Positions 1 through 55,322 of a stretch of DNA of 64,000 bases are shown piece by piece (positions within the stretch are counted from its first letter, which is position 1; each line of letters begins with the position of its first letter). Location of the stretch: positions 2,062,984 through 2,126,983 of the forward strand of contig OZ244861.1 in assembly GCA_965221065.1 (NCBI GenBank), in the 5' to 3' direction. This DNA comes from Dehalococcoidia bacterium. GTDB taxonomy: Bacteria > Chloroflexota > Dehalococcoidia > Bin125. A model generated the notes under the pieces. It was given only the letters and a program-made list of their open reading frames with translations. It was not told where the DNA came from and did no database searches. The position numbers and the translations under genes are program-made.

Positions 1-1
1 C

Positions 2-193
2 GGCAACGACGTGACCGAGGTGATCGACTGGGGCCGACGGCGTCTGGCCTATCCGATCAAGCAGTCGTTCGAAGGTCACTACCTCATCGCTCATTTCGAG
101 GGCGGCTCCGACGCCCGTCGCGATGACCTGGAGCAGTCGTTGCTGATTGATGAGCAGGTGCTGCGTCATCTGATTGTGCGCCGCGACCACTAG
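2..193 (+). CDS. rpsF: 30S ribosomal protein S6, C-terminal part (5' end lies outside the window)
   Basis: Translation ...[22 protein letters not shown]... matches the S6 signature; in-frame stop TAG at 191-193; followed by ssb and rpsR in the canonical order. Confidence 0.8.
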
Positions 194-225
194 CCTGCGG
201 AGACTTAACGTCGGGGAGTGAACTC

Positions 226-660
226 ATGGCGGGACTGAACAAAGTGATGTTGATCGGCAATCTGGGTGCCGATCCTGAGTTGAGATTCACGGCCAACGGC
301 GCCGCGGTCGCCAACTTCCGGATCGCATGCAGCCGGTCGTACACGGACCGAGACGGTCAGCGGCAGGAAGTGACCGAATGGGTGTCCATCGTCGCCTGGC
401 AACGCCTGGCGGAACTGGTGGGCCAGTACCTCAGCAAGGGCCGACCAGTGTATGTCGAGGGTCGATTGCAGACCCGGCAGTGGCAGGATCGCGAAGGCAA
501 CAACCGGTACACCACTGAGGTCGTTGCGAACGATATTCAGTTCCTCGGCGGTCGTGGTGGCGGTGGTGGCGGCGACTTCGATGGAGGCGGAGGCAACTGG
601 GACGATAGCCCGGGTGACATGGGCGGCGGCCCCGATGCGGGCGATTTGCCGTTTGAGTAA
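226..660 (+). CDS. ssb: single-stranded DNA-binding protein
   Basis: OB-fold N-terminus ([22 protein letters not shown]...), Gly-rich linker and acidic DLPFE tail; rpsF-ssb-rpsR synteny. Confidence 0.9.
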
Positions 661-714
661 GCAGATTCTGCGCGCGCCCGGTTGGCGTGTGACGAACAAC
701 ATCGTGGAGATTGA

Positions 715-1386
715 TTGATGACGACTGAATCCGAACCGAGCATTGAACCGGCGCCGGAGCCCGCACCGCGGATAACGCCGGCGCCTGAGTCGGGCGAACG
801 CCTGCCGCAGATGATCGAACGTACGCGACGTCGTGGGCGGCGCCGCCGCGCGCCGATCTTCACGCCGCAGGAGGTTGCGACCATCGACTACAAGGATGTC
901 GACCGCCTGAAGAAGCTGATTTCCGACCGCGGTCGGATCGAGCCACGGCGCAAGACGGGGTTGACGGCCAAGGACCAGCGCAAAGTCGCGCGGGAGATCA
1001 AGCGCGCGCGGCAAGTAGCGCTCCTGCCCTACACGGCTGAGCACATGCGCCAGACATCGCGCTTCCGCATGGTGACGAGGATGGCTCAGCGCGCGATGCG
1101 CGCCGAACTCGATGACGCTCCGCCGGAGGCTCCAGCCGAGGGCGGTGCCGAAGTGGATGCTCCGCCGGCCGAAGCTGCCCCACAGGCGGAAGCTGCGCCC
1201 CCGGTCGAGGCTGCCCCGCAGGCTGAAGCCGCACCGCCGGTCGAGGCCGCACCACCAGTCGAGGCTGCACCGCAGGCCGAGGTTGTACCCGATGGTGACG
1301 TAGCTGTTCAAGACGATGCCGCTGCAACAGAGGAGACGGCCCCGGTCAACGAAGCAGCTTCCGTGAGTGAGGAGTCCGACGCCTGA
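715..1386 (+). CDS. rpsR: 30S ribosomal protein S18 with N-terminal extension and ~130-aa C-terminal Ala/Pro/Glu-rich tandem-repeat tail
   Basis: Core [50 protein letters not shown] is canonical S18. The tail contains about 2.5 tandem copies of [12 protein letters not shown] (36-nt DNA repeat, about 1174-1284). High GC3 in frame. Stop TGA 1384-1386 overlaps the hom ATG. Confidence 0.8.
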
Positions 1387-2693
1387 TGCAGAAGTCGTTG
1401 GGGATTGGGTTGCTCGGACTCGGGGTCGTCGGACGAGGCGTCCTCGAGGCCCTGCAGGGCAATGCCCGGGCGTACGAGGCACGCTGCGGCCGCAGATTGG
1501 ATGTCCGCGCCGCCGCCGTTCGCAACGTGGCCGCGCGTGCCGATCTGGCGGCTGGAGGACTTTCGCTGTCCGATGACCCGTTCGCTGTGGTCGACCACGA
1601 CGACGTCGATGTCGTGGTGGAGTTGATGGGCGGCGAGACACCCGCGGCGGGCTGTATCGAGGCGGCGCTATCGGCCGGCAAGTCGGTAGTGACCGCCAAC
1701 AAGGAAGTGATGGCGAAGCATGGTCCGGCGCTGTTGGCGCTGGCCGAAGAGCGCGGAGTCGAACTCCGCTACGAGGCGAGCGTCGGAGGCGGAATCCCGA
1801 TCATCGGGGTCCTGCAACGAGATCTGCAGGCCAACGATGTGTCGTCAGTCAGAGCGATCATCAACGGTACGACCAACTACATGATCACCGAGATGTCGCA
1901 GGAGGGCAAAGCCTACGCCGAGGCGTTGTCCGAGGCGCAGCGCCTCGGGTACGCCGAGGCCGACCCCACCAACGATGTGGACGGCATCGACGCCGCCTTC
2001 AAGCTGGCGATCCTGGCGTCGTTGGCGTTTCACTCGCGAGTCGGACCGGACGATGTGCATTGCGAGGGAATCCGCTCGCTCGAGGCGCGCGACTTCGTCC
2101 ACGCCCGCGATCTGGGCTACGCCATCCGTATGCTGGCCACCGCTCGTCAGACTCCCGACGGGCTTGATCTCCGGGTGCATCCCACGCTGGTGCCGGTCTC
2201 CGATCCGATGGCTGCGGTCGAAGGTGTGCTGAACGCGGTGTCGGTCTCCGGAGACCTGATTGGTTCGGTGGTGCTGGAGGGTCCCGGCGCGGGCGCCGGC
2301 GCGACATCAAGCGCCGTGGTGGCGGACATTCTGGATGTCGGCAGCCGGCTCGCCTCGGGACAAGCGCCCCGACGCTTGCGACCCATCGACCCCTCCCCTC
2401 AACTCGTTCCGCTATCAAATCTCCGGGTGCGGACATATCTGCGGCTCGAAGTTCCCGATCGCGCGGGCGTACTGGCAGAATTGGGAGCGGTGTTCGCCGC
2501 CGAGGGCGTGAGCATCGCCTCCGTACTGCAGACGCCGCATCCGCAGCGCAGTCAGTCGGCTGACCTCATCGTCACGACTCACGTCTGCAGCGATGGCGCT
2601 CTACAGCGGGTGTTGGACGGCTTGGAGCTCTCGGATTCGGTGATCGAGCTGGGCGTGCGGCTTCGGATTGAGGATGGCTGTGACAACGACTGA
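1386..2693 (+). CDS. hom: homoserine dehydrogenase (with C-terminal ACT domain)
   Basis: GLLGLGVVGRG NAD-binding motif, conserved NKEV...GGGIPII... core, C-terminal ACT-like region; ATGA overlap with rpsR. Confidence 0.9.
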   Translation: MQKSLGIGLLGLGVVGRGVLEALQGNARAYEARCGRRLDVRAAAVRNVAARADLAAGGLSLSDDPFAVVDHDDVDVVVELMGGETPAAGCIEAALSAGKSVVTANKEVMAKHGPALLALAEERGVELRYEASVGGGIPIIGVLQRDLQANDVSSVRAIINGTTNYMITEMSQEGKAYAEALSEAQRLGYAEADPTNDVDGIDAAFKLAILASLAFHSRVGPDDVHCEGIRSLEARDFVHARDLGYAIRMLATARQTPDGLDLRVHPTLVPVSDPMAAVEGVLNAVSVSGDLIGSVVLEGPGAGAGATSSAVVADILDVGSRLASGQAPRRLRPIDPSPQLVPLSNLRVRTYLRLEVPDRAGVLAELGAVFAAEGVSIASVLQTPHPQRSQSADLIVTTHVCSDGALQRVLDGLELSDSVIELGVRLRIEDGCDND

Positions 2694-3690
2694 TCCGGTA
2701 GAGGGCGCTGATACTCGCTGGCTGCGGATAGAAGAATCGATCGCGGGGCTGCGCAGTCAGACCGCTGAGCTGGCGCAATCGCACGTGCGCGACGAACGAG
2801 AACTGAGCGCCCTCGATCAACGCCTACGGGAACTTGAAGGCCGGGCGCTGACATTGGCGGCTGAGGTTGGCGCATCGCTGAGGCAACTGGAAGAAGTGCA
2901 AGCCCTCCGCGAGCGGCTCGGGCGCTTCGGCGGCGAACTGGATGAGAGCCGAGAACTGTCGGAGACCTCGACCCGGCAGTTGCGCCAGGATCTCGATGTT
3001 CAGCGCGGGACGGCCAACGACGCCCTGCGCCGACTCCAGGCGAGCGAGAAGTCGCTGAACGACCTGCGCGAGCGCTTGAGCGTCTTCGACGAGGCGATTC
3101 GTCGGGTCAACGCCGAAGGCGGCGAACTGACGCATCGGTTGTCGCAGATCGAGAACAGCCAGGTCGCACTCGGCGCGCGGATTTCTGCCAATGCCGACGG
3201 ACTGCGCCGAGCCTCCGGCGAGAGCAGCGCGCTGGAAGGTCGGATCGACGCGCTCGAGCGTCAGTTGCACGGCGTGACCGAGCGGTTGGAGCTCTCCTAT
3301 CAGAGCCTGCGTCGTGTGCAAGAGACCGCCGAGCAATGGGAGGACTTGAAGAACAACGTCGACGCGTTGCGCGGCCGGATCGAGGAATCGTTGCAGGCGC
3401 TGGACGCGTCCCGAGCGATCGTGTCGTCCGTGCAACGGGGGTCGGAGGCGCTGGAGGAGCGGATCGACAATATCGAGCGGATGAGCGAGCAGCTGCGCGC
3501 CCGTGACGCTCGTCGTGAGCGTGCCGTCGCCTCGCTGGGCGACCGGATCGAGGGCGTGTCTGCGCTCACCGCGCAAGAACAGGAACGCTTCGTGGCCCTG
3601 CAGGAACAGGTCCGACGGAGACAGATCGAGGAGCTGGAGCAGGAAATCCGAGAGTTGAAGTCGTACCTGCGAGTTCGCAGCGATGGCTAG
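2674..3690 (+). CDS. hypothetical coiled-coil protein (~338 aa, almost entirely heptad-like Glu/Arg/Leu-rich)
   Basis: Long ORF with strong GC3 bias, occupying the slot between hom and thrC. No enzymatic motifs. Start at ATG 2674 (or TTG 2668) overlaps the hom 3' end by about 20 nt; its stop TAG 3688-3690 overlaps the thrC ATG 3683. Confidence 0.6.
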
Positions 3691-4774
3691 CAGCACGGTC
3701 AGGACCGGTACATGGGCCGGTGGCGGAGTGCTCGAGCGTTATGCCGACTGGCTGCCGCTGACCGAATCGACGCCCTGCGTCACGCTGGGCGAGGGCAGCA
3801 CGCCGCTGGTGCGCGCCGAGAGTCTCGAACGCGCGACCGGCGCGGACGAGGTTTGGCTGAAACTGGAGCTGTGCAACCCGACTGGCTCGTTCAAGGATCG
3901 CGGCATGGTGGTGGCGGTGGCGAAGGCGGTCGAGCAGGGGGCGACCGCCGTACTCTGTGCATCAACGGGCAACACCAGCGCCTCGGCAGCGGCCTACGCC
4001 TCACGTTGCGGGTTGCGGGCCTTCGTGCTGGTTCCCGAGGGTCGGATTGCGCAGGGCAAACTCGCCCAGGCCGCAGCGCACGGCGCGCGCGTGCTCGCGG
4101 TCGACGGCAACTTCGATGATGCGTTGCGGCTCGCGCAGGAACTGACTGCCCGGCTGCCGCTTGCGTTGGTGAACTCGGTCAATCCCTACCGGATCGAAGG
4201 TCAGAAAACTGCCGCGATGGAGATCGTCGACGCGCTGGGCGATGCGCCCGATCTGCATTGCATTCCGGTCGGCAACGCCGGCAATATCACCGCCTACTGG
4301 CACGGGTACTGCGAGTACTTCCACGCCGAGCGGGCCTCGCAACGGCCGGCCATGCTTGGCGTTCAGGCCGCGGGCGCGGCGCCGCTGGTGCGTGGACGGC
4401 CGGTGGCGCGCCCCGAGACGATCGCGACCGCGATCAGGATCGGCGCGCCCGCCTCATGGGATGGCGCCATCGAGGCGCGAGACGAGTCCGGTGGTTCGAT
4501 CATCGCGACGACCGACGAACAGATCCTCGATGCATATCGGACACTGGCGAGCGAGGAAGGCATCTTCTGCGAACCGGCCTCGGCGGCTTCAGTGGCGGGG
4601 CTTCTCACCCGGCACGGAGCCGGTTCTCTCGCGGGCCGACGCGTGGTCTGCACGATCACGGGACACGGATTGAAGGACCCGGAACGGGCGGTGGAGTCGA
4701 TTCGCGCTGACGTGGTGGAGATCGGCTCGAACTTCGACGAAGCGGCGGAGGCGATCGAGGAGGGGCTGCGATGA
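3683..4774 (+). CDS. thrC: threonine synthase
   Basis: PLP-lysine motif GSFKDRG, conserved ...AYWHGY... and overall length; hom-thrC context. Confidence 0.9.
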
Positions 4775-5346
4775 GCGGTCGAGTCGATCGCGCAAGGGCG
4801 GAAGCCGCCGTCCGAGACCTGCTGCTGGCGCTGGGCGAGGACCCGGATCGCGAAGGTCTGCGCGAAACGCCGCGCAGGGTGGTGGCGGCGTACGAGGAGA
4901 CGCTCGGCGGCCCGGACGTCAATATCCCGGAGCTGCTGTCGGTGGGCTTTGAAGAAGGCCACGACGAGATGGTCATCCTGCGCGATGTGCCCTTCTTCTC
5001 GATGTGCGAGCATCACCTGATGCCGTTCCATGGGATCGCCCATGTGGGCTACGTGCCCAATGGCCGCGTCGTTGGACTCTCCAAGCTGGCCCGCCTCGTC
5101 GATGCGATGGCTCGACGCCCGCAGTTGCAGGAACGGCTGACGGCGCAGATTGCCGACGTGCTGATGGACACGATTCAGCCGCAGGGCGCCGCGGTCGCCG
5201 TCGAAGCGGAGCATCTCTGCATGCAGATGCGCGGGATCAAGAAACCCGGCTCGCGCATGCTGACCTCGGCGATGCGCGGCAGTTTCCTTGAGCAGGAAGA
5301 GACGCGAGCAGAGTTCCTCTCGCTGGTTGGGACGCAGCGATTGTGA
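4771..5346 (+). CDS. folE: GTP cyclohydrolase I
   Basis: Motifs [22 protein letters not shown]; 191 aa; 4-nt overlap with thrC stop. Confidence 0.9.
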
Positions 5347-6338
5347 GTTTGGCTGTCGTCAGCGGCCAATACGCCGATCTGCGCGATCGCTGGAGCGCAC
5401 TCTGCCGCGCCGTCCCGGCGACGCCGTTCTCAACACCGGAGTTCGGCGAGGCGTGGTGGTCCGTGTTCGGCGAATCCGCTTGCGGCGAACTGGAGCTGGT
5501 TGGGCTGGAGAATGGAACCGGCGAGCTGGTGGGGTTGGCCCCGCTCAGGCGCTGCGAGACGCATTGGACGTTCGCCGGCGACCACGAGGTGTCGGACTAC
5601 CTCGGACCGGTGGCGCAGGCCGGCAAGGAGCGGGAGCTCGCCTCCGCTGTGCTGGATCGTCTTGAGGCGTCCGACGCGCAGACGGCGGAGTTCCGTGGGA
5701 TCGAACCCGGTTCGAACTGGGCGAGCCTCTTCGGAACTGCGGTCGAGCGCGGCTGGCGGGTTGACGTCGAGCAGGAAGCCGTGTGTCCGACAGTCGAGAT
5801 TGGCGGCGGCTGGGAGACATACCTGTCGAACCTGCGCCCGCGGGATCGGCGCGAGGTACGGCGAAAGCTGCGACCGCTGCGCCAGCTTCGCGGGGCTGTG
5901 GAGTTCAAATCCGTCGAGAGCCCGCAACAGGTGGCGGCCTGGATGCCTGAGTTCATGTCGATGATGGCCGACTCCCGCGGCGACAAGGCGGTGTTCCTGA
6001 CCGACGAGATGCGCTCCTTCTTCGAGCGCCTCAGCGCATCGCTGGCGGAAGCGGGTTGGTTGCGGCTGTATGTGATGTCGGTCTCGGGTGAGGCGGCGGC
6101 GATCGTGCTCTGCTTCGTCGCCCAGAATCAACTGCTGCTATACAACAGTGGCTACAGTCCCAAATTCCGTGACCTGTCGGCTGGATTGGCGTCCAAGGTG
6201 CTGTGCATCCGCGATGCGGTTGAGCGGGGGATGTCGAGCGTGAACTTCTTGCGTGGCGATGAGCCGTACAAGTATGAGTTGGGCGGTCGCGACGCCGTGG
6301 TCCGCCGCATCCAGCTCACCAGGGAGCTCGCAAGATGA
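5343..6338 (+). CDS. GNAT-superfamily acyltransferase of the CelD/BioF2/FemAB-like (Acetyltransf_6) type
   Basis: 331 aa; C-terminal [14 protein letters not shown] motif is typical of CelD/FemAB-like acyltransferases. GTG start at 5343 overlaps the folE stop; its stop overlaps the next gene's start. Confidence 0.55.
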
Positions 6339-7633
6339 TGCGACCTCGACGGCGCCTGGCCGTGATGTCGACGCACACCTCGCCGCTAGCCAAGGCGGGT
6401 ACGACCAAGGCCGGCGGCATGAACGTCTATGTGGCCGAGTTGTCACGCCAGCTTGTCGACCTGGGCTGGGAAGTCGACATCTTCACACGGCGCGACCACC
6501 CCGACGCGCCGTACGTCGAGGAGTTCGCGCCCGGTGCGCGGTTGTTTCAGGTCGATGCCGGCCCGCCGGTAGTGCTGCCGCCGATCGAAGTGGCCGCGCA
6601 TGTCTCGGAGTTCACCGAGGGCGTGGCCCGGATTGCGGCCGGACGCGACGATTACGACCTCGTCCATTCCCACTATTGGGTGGCGGGACTCAGTGGCATC
6701 GAGCTGTCGCGGCGCTGGCAATGTCCCCACGCGGTGATGTTCCACACCCTGGGCGCGGTCAAGCAGATGTTCCAACAGCCGGAGCCGCCGTTCCGCCTCG
6801 CCGGCGAGCGGCAGGTCGTGGCTTGCTCCGACGTGATCATCGGCGCGACATCCCACGAGCGGGCATTCCTGATTGGGCAGTACGAAGCGGACGCATCGCG
6901 TGTCCGCGTCGTCCCGTGCGGGATTGATCTGTCGCGCTTCCACCCGTCTGGTGTCGAGGAATCCCGGCGCAGGGTGGCGACCGCCTTCCCCGAGCTGGGC
7001 CTGTCCGAGGGCCCCGGCATCCTCTTCGTCGGACGACTCGAGGAGGCGAAGGGTGCCGACCTGCTGATTCAAGCGTTGCCGCTCATCAAGGCGCAATCCG
7101 ACCCGCTGCTCTGGATCGCCGGCGGCGACGAGCGTGACAATGGCGAGCGCGCGCGGCTGCGCGACCTCGCCGATGCCTGCGGCGTCGCCGAGCGCGTGCG
7201 ATTCGTCAACGCCGTCGACAGAGAGCAATTGCCCGACCTGTACCGGGCCGCGGCGGTCTGCGCCGTGCCGTCCGCCTACGAGTCGTTCGGTCTGGTGGCG
7301 GTCGAAGCGATGGCCTGCGGCACCCCGCCGGTGGCGACCAGGGTTGGTGGACTGGCAACCACGATCACGCACGGCAAGACCGGCCTGCTGGCGAACGATC
7401 GCCGACCCGAACACTTCGCCTCGGCAATCGAGCGCCTGCTCTCCGACGACACGCTGCGAAGTCGGATGGGCGTTGCCGCCGCGGCCGAGATGGCCGTGTT
7501 TTCCTGGAACAGCGTGGCTCGCAGTATTCTCGACGTGTACCAGGACCTGCTGAACGAGGCCGAGGTGGCAGGCTCGCAACGAGACTCCTGTTGCCCGGAT
7601 TCGGTGGAGTCCCTGTTGGTGGCGGCGAGTTAG
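6335..7633 (+). CDS. mshA: GT4 glycosyltransferase, MshA-like (D-inositol-3-phosphate N-acetylglucosaminyltransferase-like)
   Basis: N-terminus RRLAVMSTHTSPLAKAGTTKAGGMNVYVAELSRQLVDLGWEVDIFTR closely matches the MshA signature (SxHTSPL...GGMNVYV); GT4 C-terminal EX7E region present. Confidence 0.7.
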   Translation: MMRPRRRLAVMSTHTSPLAKAGTTKAGGMNVYVAELSRQLVDLGWEVDIFTRRDHPDAPYVEEFAPGARLFQVDAGPPVVLPPIEVAAHVSEFTEGVARIAAGRDDYDLVHSHYWVAGLSGIELSRRWQCPHAVMFHTLGAVKQMFQQPEPPFRLAGERQVVACSDVIIGATSHERAFLIGQYEADASRVRVVPCGIDLSRFHPSGVEESRRRVATAFPELGLSEGPGILFVGRLEEAKGADLLIQALPLIKAQSDPLLWIAGGDERDNGERARLRDLADACGVAERVRFVNAVDREQLPDLYRAAAVCAVPSAYESFGLVAVEAMACGTPPVATRVGGLATTITHGKTGLLANDRRPEHFASAIERLLSDDTLRSRMGVAAAAEMAVFSWNSVARSILDVYQDLLNEAEVAGSQRDSCCPDSVESLLVAAS

Positions 7634-7656
7634 GGAACTACGCCTCATCGAAGCAG

Positions 7657-8472
7657 ATGGGAGCCCAAATGCCGGACGCCGAGGCTCCTGCGGAGGCGCG
7701 CCGCGCCCTGGTCGTGATGGCCCATCCGGACGACATCGAATTCACCTGCGGCGGAACGGTCGCCCAGCTGTCGGATGACGGCTGGGACGTGACATTCTGT
7801 CTCGTCACGAGCGGAGACAAGGGCACCAAGGATCCGATGCTCGGGCCGGCCGATCTTGGCGCCCTGCGCGAGGCGGAGCAGGAAGCGGCTGCCTCGGAAC
7901 TGGGGATCAAGCGCTGCATCTTCTTGCGGGTCCCCGACGGCCACGTCGAAGACGGCTCCGAGTTTCGCGGACAGATGGTGCGCGTACTGCGCGAAGTCCG
8001 GCCCGAGCTGATGATCACCTGGGACGGCTATCGCGGGTTCAATCATCGCGACCACCGCACCGTCGGCATCGCGGCACTGGATGCGGTCTTTCCGCTCTCT
8101 CGCAATGCCAACTCGTACGCCGAGCAGGTTGCGACCGGCGTCGAACCGGTGCGAGTCAACACCGTCCTGCTCGCCGGGAGCAATGAGCCGAACTACTTCG
8201 TTGACGTGTCCGACCAGCTCGACCGTCGAATCGACGCCCTGCTGCGCCATGCCTCGCAGGTCCAGGCGCCGAATCGCGAGGAGATGGCGAAGCGGATGCG
8301 CAATCGCTCTGAGCAGGCCGCGCGGGCAGGCCGGATCCCCTGGTCGGAAGGATTCCGTCGACTGACCTTCGGCGAAGCCCGCGCCCCGCGTCGATCGGAT
8401 GCGCTCAAGGCAGAGGCCAAGGCGAGAGCAGACGCGGAATCATCGGAGCACTCGGAGACGAGCGATGGCTGA
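7657..8472 (+). CDS. PIG-L/LmbE-family N-acetylglucosaminyl deacetylase (MshB/BshB-like)
   Basis: AHPDDIEFTCGG motif and overall LmbE-like layout. Start ATG 7657, or ATG 7669, which is preceded by a GGGAG ribosome-binding site. Directly follows the MshA-like gene. Confidence 0.75.
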   Translation: MGAQMPDAEAPAEARRALVVMAHPDDIEFTCGGTVAQLSDDGWDVTFCLVTSGDKGTKDPMLGPADLGALREAEQEAAASELGIKRCIFLRVPDGHVEDGSEFRGQMVRVLREVRPELMITWDGYRGFNHRDHRTVGIAALDAVFPLSRNANSYAEQVATGVEPVRVNTVLLAGSNEPNYFVDVSDQLDRRIDALLRHASQVQAPNREEMAKRMRNRSEQAARAGRIPWSEGFRRLTFGEARAPRRSDALKAEAKARADAESSEHSETSDG

Positions 8473-9382
8473 GGGCGCGCTGTTCCTGCTCTGGGCGAGC
8501 TTTGTCGCCGCTGGCTGCGCCGCATTCGCATCGGTGGTCTACGCGCTCCAGCCGCGCCTCCGTATTGCCTGGTCACCCAGACGGGTCGAGGCGACTGAGC
8601 CTTCTCTGTCTGTGCCCGAACCTGCGCCGGTTCGCTCGCCGACGCTGGGCGGCATTGCCACGCTGAGCGTCTGGACCGCAGCCGCGCTGGGCGTCACGGG
8701 CTTGGTGATGCGCTCGATCGCGCTGAATCACGCGCCATACAGCAACCTGTTCGAGTTCTCGATGTCGTTCGGTGTGGCCATAGTCCTCCTCTATGCCATC
8801 TTCGAGTTGCGCGCTGGGACGAGACTGGCCGGAGCGTTCGTGCTTCCCGTCGCCTGCGGGCTGTACGGATCGGCGCTGGCGTTCCCCAGCGGCGGGCAGG
8901 AAGTGCTGGTCCCGGCGCTGCAGAGTCCAACCCTGTTGACGATCCACGTGGCGCTGATGATCCTCTCGTACGCGGTCCTGGCGGTCGCGTTCGGCGGCGC
9001 GCTGATGCACCTGGTGCAGGGATTCCCGGCGCGGGTCGCCGCGCGCGGCGGCCGCTACGACTGGTTGCCCTCGGCCGGGCGCTCCGACGAGTTGACCTAT
9101 CGCGCCGTGCTCGTCGGCTTCCCCCTGCTGGCAGCCGGCATCGCGCTGGGCGCGTTCTGGGCCAACGACGCTTGGGGCCGCTATTGGGGCTGGGATCCAA
9201 AGGAAACCGCCGCACTCGTGACCTGGCTGATCTTCGCGGTCTACATCCACGGTCGTGGACTGCGCCAACTGCGCGGAGCGCGGAGCGCCTGGATCGTGGT
9301 GTTGGGTTTCTTCGCCGTGATGTTCACCTATCTGGGTGTCAACCTCTGGATCTCCGGTCTGCACTCCTACGCCGGGGTCTGA
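8465..9382 (+). CDS. ccsA: cytochrome c-type biogenesis protein CcsA/ResC-like (heme-handling W-rich domain)
   Basis: Multi-TM protein with WGRYWGWDPKE (WWD-type heme-binding motif) and conserved His; ATG 8465 overlaps PIG-L stop (TGA 8470-8472). Confidence 0.75.
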   Translation: MAEGALFLLWASFVAAGCAAFASVVYALQPRLRIAWSPRRVEATEPSLSVPEPAPVRSPTLGGIATLSVWTAAALGVTGLVMRSIALNHAPYSNLFEFSMSFGVAIVLLYAIFELRAGTRLAGAFVLPVACGLYGSALAFPSGGQEVLVPALQSPTLLTIHVALMILSYAVLAVAFGGALMHLVQGFPARVAARGGRYDWLPSAGRSDELTYRAVLVGFPLLAAGIALGAFWANDAWGRYWGWDPKETAALVTWLIFAVYIHGRGLRQLRGARSAWIVVLGFFAVMFTYLGVNLWISGLHSYAGV

Positions 9383-9638
9383 CAGCCAGACAACACACGC
9401 AATTCGGGTGTCGGAGCGCTGGGATTCTTGCAGGGTTGGCTTGAGTTGGGATATCGTTGAGCTTCACGCGCCTGCCGCGGAGGCGGTCGGGCGTGGGAAG
9501 GGTCGAGGCCGACCTGAGGTTGATGACCGCCGGCGCACCGCCGGCCCGATCAGCCAGCGGCTTTGACCCTGTATTCGTGCCAATGCACCCGTGAGCGCAT
9601 AGGCTCGAAGCACGAGCGAGCGAGGAACGAGCAGCAGC

Positions 9639-10076
9639 GTGCCGACGATCAACCAGCTGGCCCGCAAGGGACGCAAGAAGTCCCGCAAGAAGGCGAAGGC
9701 GCCTGCCTTGCGCTTCCGCTACAACGCGTTGACCAGCCGCACCACCCAGGACAGCGGCTCTCCGCAAAAGCGCGGCGTCTGCACGGCGGTGCGCACAGTC
9801 ACGCCGAAGAAGCCCAACTCCGCCCTGCGCAAGGTCTGCCGGGTACGGCTAACCAACGGGATCGAAGTGACCGCTTACATCCCCGGCGAAGGTCACACGC
9901 TGCAGGAGCACTCGATCGTACTGGTGCGCGGCGGACGTGTCCGCGATTTGCCCGGCGTTCGTTATCAGGTCGTACGCGGAGCGCTCGATGCGCTTGGCGT
10001 CGCCGAGCGAAAGCGGGGCCGCTCCAAGTACGGAACTCGCAAGACTGCAGGATTGACAACAGCGACCACCCACTAG
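9639..10076 (+). CDS. rpsL: 30S ribosomal protein S12 (with ~14-aa internal insertion and C-terminal extension)
   Basis: [13 protein letters not shown]...[11 protein letters not shown](C)[37 protein letters not shown] canonical; GTG start. Confidence 0.9.
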
Positions 10077-10152
10077 CGGGTGGTCGCTTTAGTGTGGCGA
10101 GCCCCCTCGGCATCTGACGAGACGCGCTCGCGTTAGAGATGGATGAGACAAC

Positions 10153-10623
10153 GTGCCGCGACGACGACGGCCCGATCGACACGAAATCCGCCCCGACGCG
10201 GTCTACGGATCGCAGCGGGTGCAGATGGTCATCAACCGCCTCATGAGGAACGGCAAGAAGGGCACCGCCGAGCGCATCGTCTACCGCGCCCTCGACATCC
10301 TCGAGGAACGCGTGCGTCAGGACCCGCTCGAAGTCTTCGACCAGGCCTTGAACAACATCACGCCCGAGATGGAAGTGCGCCCGCGACGCGTTGGTGGCGC
10401 GACCTATCAGGTACCAGTCGAGATTCGCCACGACCGTCGCACCTCGCTCGGCATTCGCTGGCTCGTCACCGCGGCGCAGGGGCGCAAGGGCCGGCCCGCC
10501 CACCTCTCCCTCGCCGACGAGCTGCTCGACGCATACAGCAACAGTGGCGCCGCTGTGCGCCGCCGTGAAGAAACCCACCGGATGGCGGAAGCGAACCGCG
10601 CGTTCGCTCACTACCGCTGGTAG
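10153..10623 (+). CDS. rpsG: 30S ribosomal protein S7
   Basis: MPRRRRPDRHEIRPDAVYGSQ...VINRLMRNGKKGTAERIVY... canonical S7; GTG start. Confidence 0.9.
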   Translation: MPRRRRPDRHEIRPDAVYGSQRVQMVINRLMRNGKKGTAERIVYRALDILEERVRQDPLEVFDQALNNITPEMEVRPRRVGGATYQVPVEIRHDRRTSLGIRWLVTAAQGRKGRPAHLSLADELLDAYSNSGAAVRRREETHRMAEANRAFAHYRW

Positions 10624-10757
10624 CGCGACGCCGGACGAGCGATTGAAGGAACGCCCAACGAGAGCTGACCCCTGGCCCCAAGTTGCCGGTGCTCAACGTT
10701 GCGCGAAGCAGAGACCCGAAAGAACGACCAGAGAGCTGACCAGAGGACACGATCAAC

Positions 10758-12812
10758 ATGCCCGCTGACCCGCCCATCTCGTCGCTCAGGAATATCGGCG
10801 TCATTGCCCATATCGATGCCGGCAAGACCACCGTGACCGAACGGATCCTCTACTTCACCGGTCGCACCTACAAGATCGGCGAAGTGCACGAGGGTACCGC
10901 CGTGATGGACTTTATGGAGCAGGAGCGCGAGCGCGGCATCACGATCATGGCCGCGGCGACGTCTTGCGAGTGGAGTGACCACCGGATCAACATCATCGAT
11001 ACTCCGGGTCACGTCGACTTCACCGTCGAAGTGGAACGCTCGCTGCGAGTGCTGGATGGCGGCGTGGTCGTCTTCGACGCCGTCGCCGGGGTCGAGCCGC
11101 AGTCGGAGACGGTCTGGCGACAGGCCGACCGCTACGGTGTCCCCCGCATCTGCTTCGTCAACAAGATGGACCGGATCGGCGCCGACTACTGGCGCACCAT
11201 GGAGATGATTCGCGACCGCCTGGGCATGATGCCCGTGCCGCTGCAGATTCCGATTGGCTCCGAAGACCAGTTCCAGGGCGTAATCGATCTGATTCGCGAA
11301 CGCGCCTGGTTCTTCAGCTCCGACCGCGACGCCCCGCCGACCGAGGGTGACATTCCCGATGACTACGTCGCCGACGCCGGTCGCTGGCGCGAGACGATGA
11401 TCGAACGAATCGCCGAGTTCGACGAGCAGGTGATGATCTCGTACATCGAAGGGCACGAGCTCTCGGTCGACGAGATCGTCAAGGCAGTGAGGCGCGGAAC
11501 GGTCGGGAACTCGTTCACGCCGGTCTTCTGTGGATCGGCCCTAAAGAACGTCGGTGTCCAGCGCTTGCTGGACGGGATCGTCGACTACCTCCCGGCGCCG
11601 GATGAGGTACCGCCGGTCGAAGGCGTCGGTCACAACGGCCCCGAGATCCGCTTCGCCGATCGCGAAGAGCCGCTCACGGCACTCGCCTTCAAGATCGTCA
11701 CCGACCCCTACGTCGGCCGGATTGCCTACGTCCGCATCTATGCCGGCACGCTGAAGGCCGGCGATGGCGTCTACAACTCGTCTCGCGACGAGACCGAGCG
11801 CGTGGGGCGTCTGCTGCGCGTTCACGCGGATTCGCGCGAGGACATCGATCACGTGACCGCCGGCGACATCGCCGCGTTCGTCGGACCGAAACAGACCTTC
11901 ACCGGCGACACGCTCTGCGATCGCAACGCGCCCGTGTTGCTGGACCAGATCTCCTTCCCCGAGCCGGTCGTTTCGATTGCGATCGAGGCGAAGAGCGCCG
12001 ACGACCAGGATCGCCTCGGCGCTTCGCTGCGCAAGCTGGCCGAGGAAGACCCCACCTTCAAGGTCGAATACAACGACGAGACCGCTCAGACCGTGATTTC
12101 CGGGATGGGCGAGCTGCACCTGGAAGTGATTGCCGACCGACTGCGCCGCGAGTTCAACGTGATGTGCAACGTCGGTCGACCGCAGGTGTCGTATCGCGAA
12201 ACCATCCGTCGTACCTCCGAGGCGGAAGGCCGCTTTGTCCGCCAGACGGGCGGCCGGGGTCAGTTCGGGCACGTGATGCTGCGCGTCGAACCGAACACGC
12301 CCGGCGAGGGATTCGAGTTCGAGGACGAGACGGCCGGCGGTGTCGTGCCGCAGCAGTACATCAGCTCGGTGCGCAAGGGCGTTGAGGACGCCATGCGCTC
12401 CGGTGTGGTCGGCGGGTTCCCCGTCGTTGACGTCAAGGTGGCATTGACCGACGGGTCCTATCACCAGGTGGACTCGAGCGAGATGGCCTTCGCCACCGCC
12501 GCCTCGATCGGATTCCGCGAGGCGCTGCGCAAGGCGGCGCCGATCCAGCTGGAGCCGATGATGCGCGTGGAGATTTCCACGCCGCCGGAGTACTTCGGCG
12601 AGGTCGCCGGCGACCTCTCCAGCCGCCGCGGTTCGGTCGTCGGCACGGAAGAACGCGGCGCGGCCCAGATCATCCAGGCGCAGATGCCCCTGGCCAACCT
12701 GTTCGGATACACCACGGCGCTGCGCTCGATGACGCAGGGCCGAGCCACGGCGAGCATTGAGTTCGACCACTACGAGGAAGTCCCGCAGAGCGTGCTCGCG
12801 GAAGCCCGCTAG
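10758..12812 (+). CDS. fusA: elongation factor G
   Basis: [18 protein letters not shown]-domain motifs; 684 aa; str-operon position. Confidence 0.95.
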
Positions 12813-31937: not shown

Positions 31938-35325
<3,388 letters not shown>

Positions 35326-35335
35326 GGCGGCAACG

Positions 35336-36274
35336 TTAACGGCTCTGCGGGAGCCGCGTCGACAGCCCCCGTTCATCGATTGTTATCTGGGGGACTCGTT
35401 CCCGAATCAGATCGGGCGTCGATCGCAGGATGCCGTTGATGCCGAAGGCCTCAATCGCGAACGATGCGCAGGCGCAGCCCCAGACCGCAGCCTCAATCAG
35501 GTCATGCCCGCGAGCCAGCGCGCTCAGCAGCGCGCCCGCGAATGTGTCCCCGGCGCCGGTCGGATCGGTGGCCCGGACGTTCGGCGCCGCGCCGATCGTC
35601 GTACGGCGGCCTCGCTCGAAGATCTCGACGCCCCGTGACGCCTTCTTGAGAATGAAGATCGACGGTCCCAACGCCTGGATCTCCCGCCAGGCAGCCGGCG
35701 CCAGTTCGGGGTCATCCTGATCACCGTTCCACTCGATCAGGTGCGCCGCCTCGAGCGTGTTGATCGAGACCAGGTCGGCCGCCCGGACCTGCTCGCGAAA
35801 CTCATCACGGCGCTCGGCCACCTCGCGCTCGATCGTGTCGATGGCCACCAGTTCCGGTGCCGCCATCTGCTCGATCGCGCGCCGGTTCTGCTCCGGGTTG
35901 CCGGCCGTCAGCAAGACAAAGCGGGCCTCCCGAATCGGCTCGGCCACGACGATCGGATGGGTGTCGTACACGCCCGCGCGCGTGTACAACGTCTCGCGGA
36001 AATCGCCGTCGGGCGAGTAGCGGCAACCCCAGCGAAAGTTGGGTCCCTTCGCGTGGACCACCCCGTCGAGCCGAACCCCCCGCTCAATCAGCGGCTCCAG
36101 GAGCGCCACGTCAAAGTCGTCACCGATTACGGAGATCGGAGCAACCTCGGCCAACAACGACGCCGCCAGACTCGCGTAGACGGCCGAGCCGCCGAGCAAC
36201 TGGTCGATGTCCCCCGCCTGGCTGTGAATCTCATCCAGCGCGATCGCCCCCACAACAGCCAGGTCGACGCTCAC
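35336..36274 (-). CDS. PfkB-family carbohydrate/nucleoside kinase (adenosine kinase-like from context)
   Basis: DPTGAGDTFAGALL PfkB signature 2 and N-terminal GG motif; lies between mtnP and ahcY. Confidence 0.7.
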   Translation of the reverse strand: MSVDLAVVGAIALDEIHSQAGDIDQLLGGSAVYASLAASLLAEVAPISVIGDDFDVALLEPLIERGVRLDGVVHAKGPNFRWGCRYSPDGDFRETLYTRAGVYDTHPIVVAEPIREARFVLLTAGNPEQNRRAIEQMAAPELVAIDTIEREVAERRDEFREQVRAADLVSINTLEAAHLIEWNGDQDDPELAPAAWREIQALGPSIFILKKASRGVEIFERGRRTTIGAAPNVRATDPTGAGDTFAGALLSALARGHDLIEAAVWGCACASFAIEAFGINGILRSTPDLIRERVPQITIDERGLSTRLPQSR

Positions 36275-37149
36275 GACAGTCGGCCCTCGATCAGCAGCGA
36301 GTAGCGCTCCAGGATCTCCTCGGAGACTCGCCGAGGGTCGGTCATGATCGCCCCGAACAGCGCGCCCTCAGCCGTCGACGTCCAGTCGGAGGGCAGATTG
36401 AGCGCCACGTCGGCGACGATCCGCTGAGCGGACTGCACGTTTTGCGCGACGATCTCCGCCACGGCGGCAGCGCTCACGTCAGCCTCCGACTCGTGCCAGA
36501 CGTCGTAATCCGTGGCCGTCGCCAGCATCGCGTAAGCGATCTCCGCCTCGCGAGCGAGTTTCGCTTCCGGCACGGCTGTCATGCCGATGATCGATGCGTC
36601 CCACGAGCGATACATGTGTGACTCCGCCCTCGTGCTGAACAGCGGACCCTCCATCGCGATGTACGCGCCGCCGGCGTGAACCGTCTGGCCGACGCGGCCG
36701 GCGCTGTCCACGAGTCGCGCGCTGAGGTCGGCACAGAACGGATCGGCGAAGCCGACGTGAACAACGATCCCGTCGCCGAAAAAGGTCGTTGGCCGACCGC
36801 CGCGCGTGCGATCGATGATCTGATCCGGAACGACCATGTGTCCCGGTACGATCTCCTGCTTGAGCGAACCGACTGCCGAGACGGCGAGGATGCCCTGAAC
36901 GCCAAGCGCTTTCAGCGCCCAGATGTTGGCGCGCACCGGGATCTCGTGCGGCATCAGCCGATGGCCGACACCGTGCCGCGGTAGGAATGCGACCCGCTTG
37001 CCGTGCAGCGAGCCAATCACGATCTCGTCGGAACTCGGTCCAAACGGAGTGTCCGGCTGCCAGCGCTCGACATCTTCCAGGCCCGGCATCTTGTAGAAGC
37101 CGGAACCGCCGATCACGGCCAGGAGAGCGGTGGGATGTTCGCTGGGCAT
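36271..37149 (-). CDS. mtnP: S-methyl-5'-thioadenosine phosphorylase
   Basis: ...VIGGSGFY......GKRVAFLPRHG.GHR..PHEIP.RANIWALKALGV... PNP/MTAP family blocks. Confidence 0.85.
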   Translation of the reverse strand: MPSEHPTALLAVIGGSGFYKMPGLEDVERWQPDTPFGPSSDEIVIGSLHGKRVAFLPRHGVGHRLMPHEIPVRANIWALKALGVQGILAVSAVGSLKQEIVPGHMVVPDQIIDRTRGGRPTTFFGDGIVVHVGFADPFCADLSARLVDSAGRVGQTVHAGGAYIAMEGPLFSTRAESHMYRSWDASIIGMTAVPEAKLAREAEIAYAMLATATDYDVWHESEADVSAAAVAEIVAQNVQSAQRIVADVALNLPSDWTSTAEGALFGAIMTDPRRVSEEILERYSLLIEGRLS

Positions 37150-37168
37150 ATGGCAACCCTCGCTGAGC

Positions 37169-37699
37169 TCAGTAGATGAGCATTGACTCGACGGAGTGCG
37201 GCTCCAGCCGGTCGCGCCCGTTTAGCGCTTCAAGTTCGATCAGGAAGGCAATCTTGGCGATCTCTGCCTGCGCGTGAACGACGAGCTGGATCGCGGCCTC
37301 GGCGGTGCCGCCGGTCGCGAGCAGATCGTCGACCAGGGCGATGCGCGATCCGGCCACGATCGCGTCCGAGTGCATCTCGATCGTCGCGGACCCGTACTCG
37401 AGGTCGTAGGAGCGCGAGATCGTGTCGGCCGGCAGCTTGCCCGCCTTGCGGATCGGGACAAACGGCAGGTTCAGACGTTGCGCGATCGGCGCACCGATGA
37501 TGAACCCGCGCGACTCGATCCCGACGATCGCGTCAGCGTCCCGGCAATGTTCGGTCACCCAGTCCAGCGCCTGCGCAAACGCCGTAGGTTCAGCCAGCAA
37601 TGGTGTGATGTCGCGGAACAGGATGCCCGGCTCCGGGAAGTCCGGTACGGCGCGAATGTACTGCGCCACCAGGTCGCTGGCGGTGGGCGTGTCGGTCAT
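37169..37699 (-). CDS. apt: adenine phosphoribosyltransferase
   Basis: PRPP-binding motif ...RIALVDDLLATGGTAEAA...; ~176 aa (start 37699 or 37714). Confidence 0.85.
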   Translation of the reverse strand: MTDTPTASDLVAQYIRAVPDFPEPGILFRDITPLLAEPTAFAQALDWVTEHCRDADAIVGIESRGFIIGAPIAQRLNLPFVPIRKAGKLPADTISRSYDLEYGSATIEMHSDAIVAGSRIALVDDLLATGGTAEAAIQLVVHAQAEIAKIAFLIELEALNGRDRLEPHSVESMLIY

Positions 37700-37809
37700 G
37701 GATTCAGCGTACAAGCGACCGCTGTCGTGAGTCGCCCTTCAGCATCTCCCCACATCCCCGTGCATCGCCGATTCGCTGATAGTCTGAGCCGAAGCGGTGC
37801 TGAGGCCGA

Positions 37810-38634
37810 GTGGAGTCCGTTTTGGACGATCCCCTGAACTGGACGGACGACGACCAGGAGCGGGCGCTGCGCGCCATTGCGCCTTGGTACGACCTCGATT
37901 TCGGTCCGCTCACCGACGACGTCGAGATGATTCTCGAACTCGGTTCCCATGCGGAACGGGTCCTCGAGCTGGGCGCGGGCAACGGACGAATCGCCGTGCC
38001 ACTGGCGGCGGCCGGCTGCCGTGTGACGGCGATCGATTCATCCGAAGCGATGCTTGCGGTCGGAGAAGCCCGTATGCGTGAAGCCGGCGTCGACGTAATC
38101 CGCAGCGACATGCGTGACCTGTCAATCGGCGGGGCATTCGACCTCGTCTGCTTCGGTCTATCGACCTTCCAGCATCTCCTCCGGCGCACCGATCAGCTGG
38201 CTGCCCTGCAAGCGGCCCGACGACACCTCGCCGACAACGGCCGGCTCTTGATCGACTGGACTGCGCCCCGTCCTGACGATCTGGATCCCACCCCGTCCAC
38301 CGTGCAGCTCGAGTGGCTGCGCGAGGCGTCGACGGGCGAGCTGGTCACCAAGAGCGCAGCGCAGGAGCTGGCGCTCTATCGCTCCTGCGGTAGCGCGCTC
38401 GACCGCGCCCTGGCGATCGCCTGGATCACCTATCAGTACGACGCAGTGAACGAATCGGGACTGCTGCGCCGCTCGCTCGCGCGCTTCCCCTTGCGCGTCA
38501 ACCTGACCGCAGCTGAGATGGCCGGACTGCTGAGTGAATCAGGTCTGACCCCGATTCAGTGGTTCGGATCGTGGCAGCTCGAAGAGGTAGGCGATGGGGA
38601 TCGGCTGATCGTCCTGGCGGAGGAGGCCGGATGA
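37810..38634 (+). CDS. class I SAM-dependent methyltransferase
   Basis: Motif I VLELGAGNGR; Rossmann-like layout; GTG start. Confidence 0.7.
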   Translation: MESVLDDPLNWTDDDQERALRAIAPWYDLDFGPLTDDVEMILELGSHAERVLELGAGNGRIAVPLAAAGCRVTAIDSSEAMLAVGEARMREAGVDVIRSDMRDLSIGGAFDLVCFGLSTFQHLLRRTDQLAALQAARRHLADNGRLLIDWTAPRPDDLDPTPSTVQLEWLREASTGELVTKSAAQELALYRSCGSALDRALAIAWITYQYDAVNESGLLRRSLARFPLRVNLTAAEMAGLLSESGLTPIQWFGSWQLEEVGDGDRLIVLAEEAG

Positions 38635-54812: not shown

Positions 54813-55322
54813 CTACTCCGAGCGGGCTCCCCTGAGCAAATCGTTGACGTGCTCACGAACATGGCCGACCGCCACGCCCTCAAGAACGTCCAGCAGTGTG
54901 CCCTCAACCCCACCTGCTGACCGGGTCGGCTGCTTGAGCAGTTCCTCATCCGCTGCTCGGATGGCGTCGATCGTCTCCGCCCGATTGCGCCGGAACTCGG
55001 TCAACAGTTGCTCGACCGGCTGATCGTCTCGGCGCGCGACCTGCTTCGCGTTGTAGGCGTCCATGTCGAAACCGGCCCCGCCGCCCTGCGGGACGTCTTC
55101 CCCTCCGGCTCGCTGCTCGGCTCGTTCGATCAGGCGCGGATATGTCCACTCGATCGCGGCAATGTGGGCCAGCAACTGACGCGCATTCCAGCCCTGCTCG
55201 TAGACGCCGCGCTCGAACGCCTCATCGGGCAGTTGCGCGACCGCTTCCTGGAACTCCTCGCTGTCTTGTTGGAGTTCGGCAATTAGTTCTTCGCGGTTGG
55301 AAATCGTCATGCCTCGGGCCAT
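54813..55322 (-). CDS. DinB/YfiT-like (four-helix-bundle, MDMPI N-terminal-like) protein
   Basis: ~165 aa with conserved His context (...QLLAHIAAIEW..., ...GHVREH...); last gene of the hpnG-led operon. Confidence 0.45.
   Translation of the reverse strand: MARGMTISNREELIAELQQDSEEFQEAVAQLPDEAFERGVYEQGWNARQLLAHIAAIEWTYPRLIERAEQRAGGEDVPQGGGAGFDMDAYNAKQVARRDDQPVEQLLTEFRRNRAETIDAIRAADEELLKQPTRSAGGVEGTLLDVLEGVAVGHVREHVNDLLRGARSE

Follow-up and report, generated by a model that had tools for sequence, protein, structure and literature searches.

The window examined here is the whole 64,000-nucleotide stretch at positions 2,062,984 to 2,126,983 (forward strand) of contig OZ244861.1, assembly GCA_965221065.1, from a Dehalococcoidia bacterium of the phylum Chloroflexota. 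At window positions 5343-8472 lie three plus-strand open reading frames of coding-type G+C content at third codon positions (GC3, 0.78-0.83), each with a strong family match: a double-GNAT acyltransferase (hereafter the GNAT), a glycosyltransferase of family GT4 and a deacetylase of the PIG-L/LmbE family. We conclude that these genes constitute a real and conserved three-gene module, whose product is probably an amino-acid-decorated glucosamine. The module and its surroundings are laid out as follows.

5343-6338, plus strand: double-GNAT protein of family Acetyltransf_6, predicted Fem/MprF type, 331 aa (PF13480, 109.5 bits)
5838-5885, plus strand: invariant basic helix (R169-x-E-x-R-R-K-x-R177) spanning GNAT residues 166-181, where domain 2 begins
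6267-6272, plus strand: invariant Tyr309-Lys310 of the GNAT, in the motif FLRGxEPYKxxLG
6335-7633, plus strand: predicted retaining GT4 resembling MshA and sucrose-phosphate synthase (SPS), 432 aa (Glyco_transf_4, 97 bits; Glycos_transf_1, 150.6 bits)
7574-7630, plus strand: cysteine-containing C-terminal tail of the GT4 (SQRDSCCPDSVESLLVAAS)
7669-8472, plus strand, in a frame open from 7591: predicted PIG-L/LmbE-family zinc deacetylase (PF02585, 108.9 bits)
715-1386, plus strand: ribosomal protein S18, at the head of the same-strand run, high GC3
1386-2693, plus strand: homoserine dehydrogenase (hom)
2668-3690, plus strand: 340-aa coiled-coil protein
3683-4774, plus strand: threonine synthase (thrC)
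4771-5346, plus strand: folE, GTP cyclohydrolase I (PF01227, 246 bits; NCBIfam FolE, 264.7 bits, cutoff 162)
8465 (probable start) to 9382, plus strand: CcsB (NCBIfam CcsB, 224.7 bits, cutoff 187.6)
Downstream of ccsB: S12, S7, EF-G and EF-Tu

Junctions along this same-strand run overlap or are very short. The folE stop and the GNAT start share the sequence GTGA (5343-5346), and the GNAT stop and the GT4 start share ATGA (6335-6338), with GGAG 8 nt upstream. The GT4 stop occupies 7631-7633 and the candidate starts of the PIG-L gene lie 23-35 nt beyond it, the most likely being ATG 7669 (GGAG 5 nt upstream) or 7657; the TTG at 7591 is probably not used. The PIG-L stop overlaps the probable ccsB start. 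An earlier interpretation of this DNA made from its letters (the sequence-only reading) had described all three genes as translationally coupled, which fits the folE/GNAT and GNAT/GT4 stop-start overlaps but not the gap ahead of PIG-L. Its three family assignments were right by Pfam and NCBIfam scores; two other details needed correcting, namely the N-terminus of the GT4, placed at an internal 'MSTHTS' although the real start is ATG 6335 and 'RRLAVMS' aligns with MshA beta-1 and is conserved in homologues, and the label 'ccsA' for a gene that NCBIfam identifies as CcsB. Within window positions 1-11000, no promoter- or terminator-like site rose above shuffled expectation, which is consistent with one transcription unit running S18-hom-coiled coil-thrC-folE-GNAT-GT4-PIG-L-ccsB. 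An Rfam scan of the window gave no match and a PADLOC scan none for the GNAT, the GT4 or the PIG-L protein; the module is not a defence system.

The GNAT protein matches PF13480 over residues 169-310, far above the cutoff of 22 bits, and had no match to the FemAB family PF02388 at E<=0.01, so that of the two profiles named for it in the sequence-only reading, Acetyltransf_6 and FemAB, only the former was borne out; precomputed matches to PF02388 or PF04339 exist for a few distant homologues. No curated NCBIfam family fits, the sole match being BspF, named a crotonyl transferase, at 25 bits, and the protein falls outside MshD as defined by TIGR03448 (tandem Acetyltransf_1, at least 163 bits). 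The label CelD/BcsL, a JGI/COG-level name of homologues, has no backing from gene context: no cellulose synthase family occurs in the window or in the nine relatives' loci with gene tables. A profile built from 19 GNAT sequences found nothing among PDB sequences even at E<=10. Comparison of folds gave the following scores.

FemA (1lrz): 23.3
Staphylococcus aureus FemX (6snr): 22.3
Weissella FemX with peptidyl-RNA (4ii9): 21.7
Sbb17, an aminoacyl-tRNA-dependent peptide synthase, with the amino-sugar compound streptothrisamine (9wqx): 21.3
MprF / L-PGS, four entries: 19.1-20.6
Uncharacterised Bacteroides protein, one entry: 17.8
MshD (1ozp): 12.8, with ordinary GNATs lower still

The double-GNAT fold is thus highly similar to those of FemA, FemX and MprF, and all neighbours of known function above the gap to MshD use aminoacyl-tRNA. 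The Fem-like character proposed for the acyltransferase is thereby upheld, FemA, FemX, Sbb17 and MprF being its nearest folds, and there is published precedent for such an enzyme acting on an amino-sugar amine: Orf11 and Sbb17 are Fem-like and aminoacyl-tRNA-dependent, and Orf11 attaches glycine from Gly-tRNA to such an amine (PMC12945691).

Two parts of the GNAT are strictly conserved. Across the 19 sequences, which reach down to 38% identity, R169, E171, R173, R174, K175, R177 and L179 are invariant, and the structural model places a helix at residues 166-181; towards the C-terminus F302, L303, R304, G305, E307, Y309, K310, L313 and G314 are invariant as well. In Fem-type enzymes the catalytic lysine is preceded by an aromatic residue (Phe304-Lys305 in FemX_Wv, Phe328-Lys329 in DhpH-C), and a positively charged domain-2 helix of FemX_Wv has been proposed to hold the tRNA acceptor stem (2026 review, PMC12945691). 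Judged by position in the motif, Tyr309-Lys310 may be the counterpart of the Fem aromatic-lysine pair, and the basic helix, likewise placed by position, would correspond to the tRNA-contact helix of FemX_Wv.

Of the curated models, the NCBIfam MshA model TIGR03449 matches the GT4 best and over its full length (352.8 bits, cutoff 462.5); the BshA model TIGR03999 gives 85.6 bits (cutoff 273.7) and the PDB entry of BshA (5d00) 54 bits, in the C-terminal domain only. On the MshA model, GT4 relatives from other Chloroflexota reach 361-406 bits, also below cutoff. Among PDB proteins, CgMshA (3c48) is matched at 248.9 bits and 38.0% identity, and the SPS Tll1590 of the cyanobacterium T. elongatus (TeSPS, 6kih) at 240 bits and 35.4%; a PF20706 ('GT4-conflict') match of 60 bits is far outscored by the generic GT4 matches that cover it. 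The window protein has the motif GGMNVY as in MshA, where SPS has GGQNIY. In TeSPS, Gln51 contacts fructose, Arg178 is an acceptor-phosphate ligand and Arg105 the other phosphate ligand; in CgMshA, we take Lys78, Tyr110, Thr134 and Arg154 to be the ligands of the phosphate of inositol phosphate, a reading that TeSPS Arg105 and Arg178 corroborate. Equivalents of MshA Tyr110, His133/Thr134 and Arg154 (the counterpart of TeSPS Arg178) are present in the GT4, as are those of TeSPS Arg178, His158 and Glu331. The acceptor is probably a small phosphorylated compound. The 'ortholog-grade' match to MshA claimed earlier cannot be maintained, given a score below the cutoff, an identity of 38% to CgMshA beside 35% to TeSPS and the absence of the Lys78/Arg105-type ligand, and on these scores the GT4 is better described as a near relative of MshA than as a certified member.

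The GT4 of the window clade ends in a tail (CCPDSVESLLVAAS and variants) with no counterpart in MshA or SPS. Among relatives it takes forms such as CCPD(S/P)VESLLVAAS, SPCAEAAETLL, PCPEAE..LL, ...SCHAS and CCH(A/S)H; it is kept down to about 50% identity and is gone in more distant clades (relatives L001-L088). This cysteine-containing tail might bind a metal or sense the redox state.

The third protein is by sequence a bona fide PIG-L-family enzyme, exceeding the PF02585 cutoff of 28.2 bits and containing both zinc motifs (AHPDD and HRDH, as 'AHPDDIE' and 'NHRDHR'). On curated models it scores 96.8 bits for BshB1 (TIGR04001, cutoff 182.5), 72.3 for BshB2, 54.2 for MshB (TIGR03445, cutoff 224.35) and 48.2 for Mca, and among PDB proteins 118 bits for LnmX, about 104 for the archaeal diacetylchitobiose deacetylase, 44-57 for BshB and 33 for MshB. 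The description 'like MshB/BshB' therefore stands as far as family and motifs go but not beyond, since the protein stays under the BshB1 and MshB cutoffs and its closest PDB match is LnmX.

Conservation of the cassette in related genomes, a check set beforehand, was found. A scan with the GNAT over one genome per GTDB species yielded 385 relatives, the best 80 of which were mapped with the window proteins. All 80 are from Chloroflexota, the closest being metagenome-assembled genomes labelled Dehalococcoidia or Chloroflexota, and several appear from their isolate names to come from sponges; in the top relative (isolate RHO2_bin_60, L055) the GNAT is 94% and EF-G 98% identical. The GT4 gene directly follows the GNAT gene, at a gap of less than 200 nt, in 79 of the 80 species, over a GNAT identity range of 36-94%. 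PIG-L lies no more than 700 nt past the GT4 in 64 of the 74 loci with enough downstream sequence (within 6 kb in 67), and folE is immediately 5' of the GNAT in 61 of 72 evaluable species loci, the other 11 keeping GNAT-GT4 without folE beside the GNAT. Mean identity to the window proteins is 60% for the GNAT, 62% for the GT4 and 73% for PIG-L, and the identities of GNAT and GT4 to the window run together (r = 0.99) at similar absolute levels. The exact window GNAT sequence is not on record; its family comprises 2,674 cluster representatives (50% identity, E<=1e-30), a number that may exceed this orthologous group, and a second search seeded with a 36%-identical member gave 3,752 proteins. We found no description of this gene combination in the literature, and nothing informative on PF13480.

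Much of this linkage occurs within a widespread syntenic block, SHMT-S6-SSB-S18-hom-coiled coil-thrC-folE-GNAT-GT4-PIG-L-ccsB-S12-S7-EF-G, which by itself is weak evidence of function; the rearranged loci are the informative ones. In one locus (L079) LexA and MoaC flank GNAT-GT4, in another (L083) the pair precedes an amidohydrolase, folE-GNAT-GT4 occurs on its own in a third (L086), and folE-GNAT-GT4-PIG-L is found amid entirely different flanking genes in four more (L060, L068, L069 and L074), in the last of which both flanking genes lie on the opposite strand. The GT4 is thus the hub and GNAT-GT4 the tightest pair, with PIG-L and folE as frequent partners, and the best explanation is a vertically inherited core-genome module, (folE-)GNAT-GT4-PIG-L, of Dehalococcoidia-type Chloroflexota. 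In one clade with genomes of 4.7-5.0 Mb (L089-L091, at about 10400-11090) a DUF502 membrane protein is inserted between GT4 and PIG-L. Three Rosetta-stone candidates were set aside and not used as evidence: P0365 (776 aa), a seeming GNAT-GT4 fusion, has fragmentary domain matches in both halves and probably reflects a frameshift or a merged gene call, and P0464 and P0480 are tandem Acetyltransf_6 double-GNAT duplications.

Our working hypothesis is that the module builds an N-aminoacylated alpha-glucosaminide in three steps, and we put the probability of this whole chain at roughly 0.4. By homology, the MshA/SPS-like retaining GT4 would use UDP-GlcNAc to place N-acetylglucosamine (GlcNAc) on a small soluble acceptor. 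Since three of the four residues that bind phosphate in MshA have equivalents here, that acceptor is probably a phosphorylated, inositol-phosphate-like molecule. The PIG-L zinc hydrolase, to judge by its family and position, would then strip the N-acetyl group and expose the 2-amine. Finally, as fold, motifs and strict linkage suggest, the Fem/MprF-type GNAT would aminoacylate the freed amine, most likely from aminoacyl-tRNA, by a chemistry that may proceed via the invariant Tyr-Lys pair, as with Orf11/Sbb17 on a streptothricin-type amino sugar. In favour of this chain, both known glucosamine thiols are made in the same order (GT4, then PIG-L, then ligation to the amine), the aromatic-lysine motif and the basic helix are both invariant in the GNAT family, and some of the GT4 relatives in other Chloroflexota keep the Lys78 equivalent.

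A number of observations weigh against it. The position of MshA Lys78 and TeSPS Arg105 is a proline in the window clade ('LPPIE'), where P0229, P0237 and P0240 have lysine ('IEKE'); together with the near-tie of the GT4 between MshA and SPS, this loss leaves both its donor and its acceptor open. The PIG-L protein is nearer LnmX and the chitobiose deacetylases than MshB or BshB. PIG-L is missing from the fetched locus in 7 of the 74 species, and in one lineage (L084/L085, contigs of 3.0 and 6.6 Mb, at 7363-10079) the ancestral block holds folE-GT4-PIG-L without the GNAT, folE and GT4 being only 20 nt apart and the GT4 scoring 405 bits on the MshA model and keeping the Lys78 equivalent; adjacency of PIG-L and of the GNAT is therefore not obligatory. 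As to the third step, the acyl donor, aminoacyl-tRNA or acyl-CoA, would be assigned from the modelled fold alone. The GNAT family is acidic overall (pI about 5), and acyl-CoA use within Acetyltransf_6 is possible since another member, BspF, is a crotonyl transferase in NCBIfam. No tRNA gene is linked to the module in the 41 relatives' loci scanned, which hold 0-2 unrelated tRNA genes each, and no aminoacyl-tRNA synthetase paralogue was present in the nine loci with gene tables.

These last points also speak for an acyl-CoA-dependent enzyme, and it is conceivable, if unlikely, that the GNAT re-acylates the glucosaminide (GlcN-X) from acetyl-, succinyl-, crotonyl- or fatty acyl-CoA, with no tRNA involved, to give an N-acyl-glucosaminide, for instance a glycolipid head group or a compatible solute. 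Deacetylation followed by re-acylation is a logic that occurs in lipid A and teicoplanin biosynthesis, and by our own reading R-D-L-S-A-G at beta4-alpha3 of the GNAT resembles the CoA pyrophosphate motif Q/R-x-x-G-x-G/A; however, the family does not conserve the arginine of this CoA-like motif, in contrast to its invariant Tyr-Lys pair and basic helix. A product anchored in the envelope fits the data less well and we think it distinctly improbable: here GT4 and PIG-L would make a glucosaminyl (GlcN) lipid, either GlcN-phosphatidylinositol (GlcN-PI) of the glycosylphosphatidylinositol type or a GlcN-phosphatidylglycerol analogue, and the GNAT would aminoacylate it in the manner of MprF or act on peptidoglycan precursors. 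The PIG-A/PIG-L logic is known for GlcN-PI (PMC12182360), MprF is among the structural neighbours of the GNAT, the GT4 matches a GlcNAc-phosphatidylglycerol synthase model weakly (73 bits), and in one lineage a DUF502 membrane protein lies between GT4 and PIG-L. Yet the soluble enzymes MshA and SPS match the GT4 at 249 and 240 bits, far above the roughly 62 bits of the lipid-acting PimA/PimB', and none of the three proteins contains a membrane-associated Pfam domain, a statement about domains and not about predicted transmembrane segments, for which no prediction was made.

The regular company of folE raises another possibility, a route to a pterin glycoside, which we consider no more probable than a lipid. 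FolE would supply dihydroneopterin triphosphate, the GT4 would add GlcNAc to a neopterin-type side chain, PIG-L would convert this to a glucosaminyl-pterin and the GNAT would decorate the amine. The stop-start overlap of folE with the GNAT gene in the window, the retention of folE in five unrelated contexts (the four rearranged folE-GNAT-GT4-PIG-L loci, including the unit between opposite-strand genes, and the isolated folE-GNAT-GT4), its position directly upstream in 61 of 72 species and the lineage with just folE-GT4-PIG-L all agree with such a route, and loss of the Lys78-type ligand would suit an acceptor other than inositol phosphate. The solfapterin of Sulfolobus has a glucosaminyl-pterin structure. 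Natural GlcNAc- and GlcN-pterins are known, namely tepidopterin, limipterin and solfapterin (PMC3546692, PMC5683033). On the other hand, the GT4 matches a tetrahydrobiopterin glucosyltransferase (9v0l) at only 40.9 bits, over residues 300-380, against 249 bits for MshA, and showed no full-length similarity to characterised pteridine glycosyltransferases of the BGluT/PGT type; the unit has no PTPS or sepiapterin-reductase-type gene; and 11 of 72 species keep GNAT-GT4 without the adjacent folE, a canonical housekeeping gene whose linkage operon inertia can explain, as hom, thrC, ccsB and ribosomal genes share the block. Its persistence in the unit is a new observation that the sequence-only reading had missed, and it may be a functional partner or just the promoter-proximal gene of the operon. 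Inertia might be extended to the module as a whole, as functionally unrelated neighbours frozen in a housekeeping superoperon: the block mixes ribosomal proteins, hom, thrC, folE and ccsB at overlapping or tight junctions, and PIG-L evolves more slowly than GNAT and GT4 and stays near ccsB after insertions in L082 and L040. This we regard as very improbable, as GNAT and GT4 have stayed adjacent through at least five rearrangements of context and in 79 of 80 species, far beyond other neighbours.

Within the aminoacylated glucosaminide that we favour, the most consequential variant is one in which the amino acid is cysteine. The module would then make the so far unidentified low-molecular-weight thiol of Chloroflexota, Cys-GlcN-X, its cysteine ligated from Cys-tRNA(Cys) by a Fem-type transferase; we hold this to be quite unlikely. 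To our knowledge the mechanism of BshC is still unresolved. A Fem-type ligase would, if real, be a third and mechanistically new solution to cysteine ligation, beside BshC and the ATP-dependent MshC, and would for the first time bring aminoacyl-tRNA into the synthesis of a major redox cofactor. The unidentified thiols of Chloroflexus (2019 commentary, PMC6336425) lend this reading circumstantial support. In its accessible part, a 2018 survey of bshA-C and mshA-D does not list Chloroflexi, and we found no literature joining Dehalococcoidia and mycothiol. As the sequence-only reading had stated, there is no MshC-like gene in the window so far as scanned: among 39 of about 66 called genes searched with Pfam or NCBIfam (the rest being mostly the ribosomal-protein cluster) none resembled MshC, MshD or BshC, nor was there a gene for MshB or inositol-1-phosphate synthase. 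A 311-aa protein of tandem-GNAT size in an S-adenosylmethionine-cycle operon (34441-35376, minus strand) was considered as an MshD candidate and rejected, scoring only 19 bits on MshD. No sequence feature of the module points to cysteine or inositol in the product.

The window also encodes, at 54813-55322 on the minus strand, a 169-aa DinB_2/MDMPI_N/MST protein that passes Pfam thresholds and reaches 41 bits on NCBIfam TIGR03083 (cutoff 50). DinB/MST proteins typically occur in users of mycothiol or bacillithiol, and this predicted member of the superfamily of mycothiol/bacillithiol S-transferases may be counted as further circumstantial support for a thiol.

Other genes of the window deserve brief mention. 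The S18 gene encodes 223 aa, with the S18 domain at residues 55-104 only and a long Ala/Pro/Glu-rich repetitive C-terminal extension, and S18 gene calls in relatives are likewise long (185-306 aa). The coiled-coil gene overlaps both hom and thrC and is syntenic in all relatives, and its product evolves fast (27-96% identity); it has no Pfam family at cutoff, and its NCBIfam LA_3659_fam match (NF047516, 41.1 bits, cutoff 36), confined to residues 86-248, is read as generic coiled-coil similarity. A methyl-cycle/salvage operon at 31938-37714 (minus strand) comprises metK, ahcY, the 311-aa protein with its C-terminal GNAT, a PfkB kinase, a methylthioadenosine (MTA)/purine nucleoside phosphorylase and a phosphoribosyltransferase. 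A 450-aa open reading frame with coding-type GC3 at 38559-39911 (plus strand), just upstream of plsX, has no Pfam or NCBIfam match. HpnH, the adenosyl-hopene transferase, is encoded at 60541-61548 (minus strand; NCBIfam 518.5 bits, cutoff 225), near a PNP_UDP_1 phosphorylase-family gene (58149-58856, minus strand) that could be HpnG-like. HpnH, with the possible HpnG, implies by sequence the synthesis of extended bacteriohopanepolyol side chains in a Dehalococcoidia-type genome; no squalene-hopene cyclase was found among the window genes scanned. HpnI is a GT2 enzyme and HpnK a YdjC-type protein. An HpnK-type hopanoid glucosamine route for the module was rejected, as the families differ (GT4 and PIG-L here) and hpnH and the module are 50 kb apart.

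Dehalococcoidia-type Chloroflexota, among them SAR202-like and sponge-associated lineages, are abundant bacteria of which hardly any have been cultured, and the module lies in their core housekeeping operon. We know of Fem-type chemistry on a sugar amine only from antibiotic pathways so far; should the proposed chemistry be correct, it would give Fem-type aminoacyl-tRNA-dependent transferases a role on a sugar amine in primary metabolism. If the amino acid were cysteine, the old question of the redox thiol of Chloroflexi would be answered by a non-orthologous replacement of MshC/BshC, and if folE were a true partner the module would point instead to an undescribed glucosaminyl-pterin.

The module invites comparison with several known systems. 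Among curated thresholds, those for MshA, BshA, BshB1, MshB and MshD were failed and those for GT4, PIG-L and Acetyltransf_6 passed, the Fem/MprF class being assigned by fold. As in the mycothiol pathway of Actinobacteria (MshA, MshA2, MshB, MshC, MshD), a GT4 that aligns with MshA and a PIG-L protein are followed by an enzyme that would acylate the freed amine. However, the GT4 lacks Lys78 and does not reach the MshA cutoff, the PIG-L protein attains 54 of the 224 bits required for MshB, neither a CysRS-like MshC nor an MshD is present in the part of the window scanned, and the genes are clustered, not scattered, and belong to Chloroflexota. Bacillus bshA/bshB1 are embedded in a housekeeping operon, as the module genes are. 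The bacillithiol pathway (BshA, BshB, BshC) also shares the proposed sequence of GlcNAc transfer, PIG-L deacetylation and amino-acid ligation, and BshB1 is the top curated match of the PIG-L protein, yet both BshA (85.6, cutoff 273.7) and BshB1 (96.8, cutoff 182.5) scores are below threshold and the unit has no BshC-type protein, a Fem-like GNAT standing in its place. SPS (6kih) resembles the GT4 at 240 bits and 35% identity and in the equivalents of Arg178, His158 and Glu331, but the GT4 has GGMNVY, not GGQNIY, Arg105 is not conserved, and a deacetylase neighbour would be senseless for a glucose donor. From FemX/FemA/FemB, MurM and MprF/aaPGS the GNAT differs in its identity of 11-15% and its lack of a PF02388 match; it has neither the coiled-coil arm of FemA nor the membrane flippase domain of MprF, and its gene neighbour is a soluble-type GT4 rather than mur genes. 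Orf11/Sbb17 of the streptothricin-type BD-12 offer the likeness to the proposed third step, although they belong to a Streptomyces secondary-metabolite cluster with no MshA-like GT4/PIG-L pair ahead of them, and their similarity to the GNAT is undetectable by profile search. By analogy, then, the first two steps of the module would resemble mycothiol and bacillithiol synthesis, and the third the reaction of Orf11/Sbb17.

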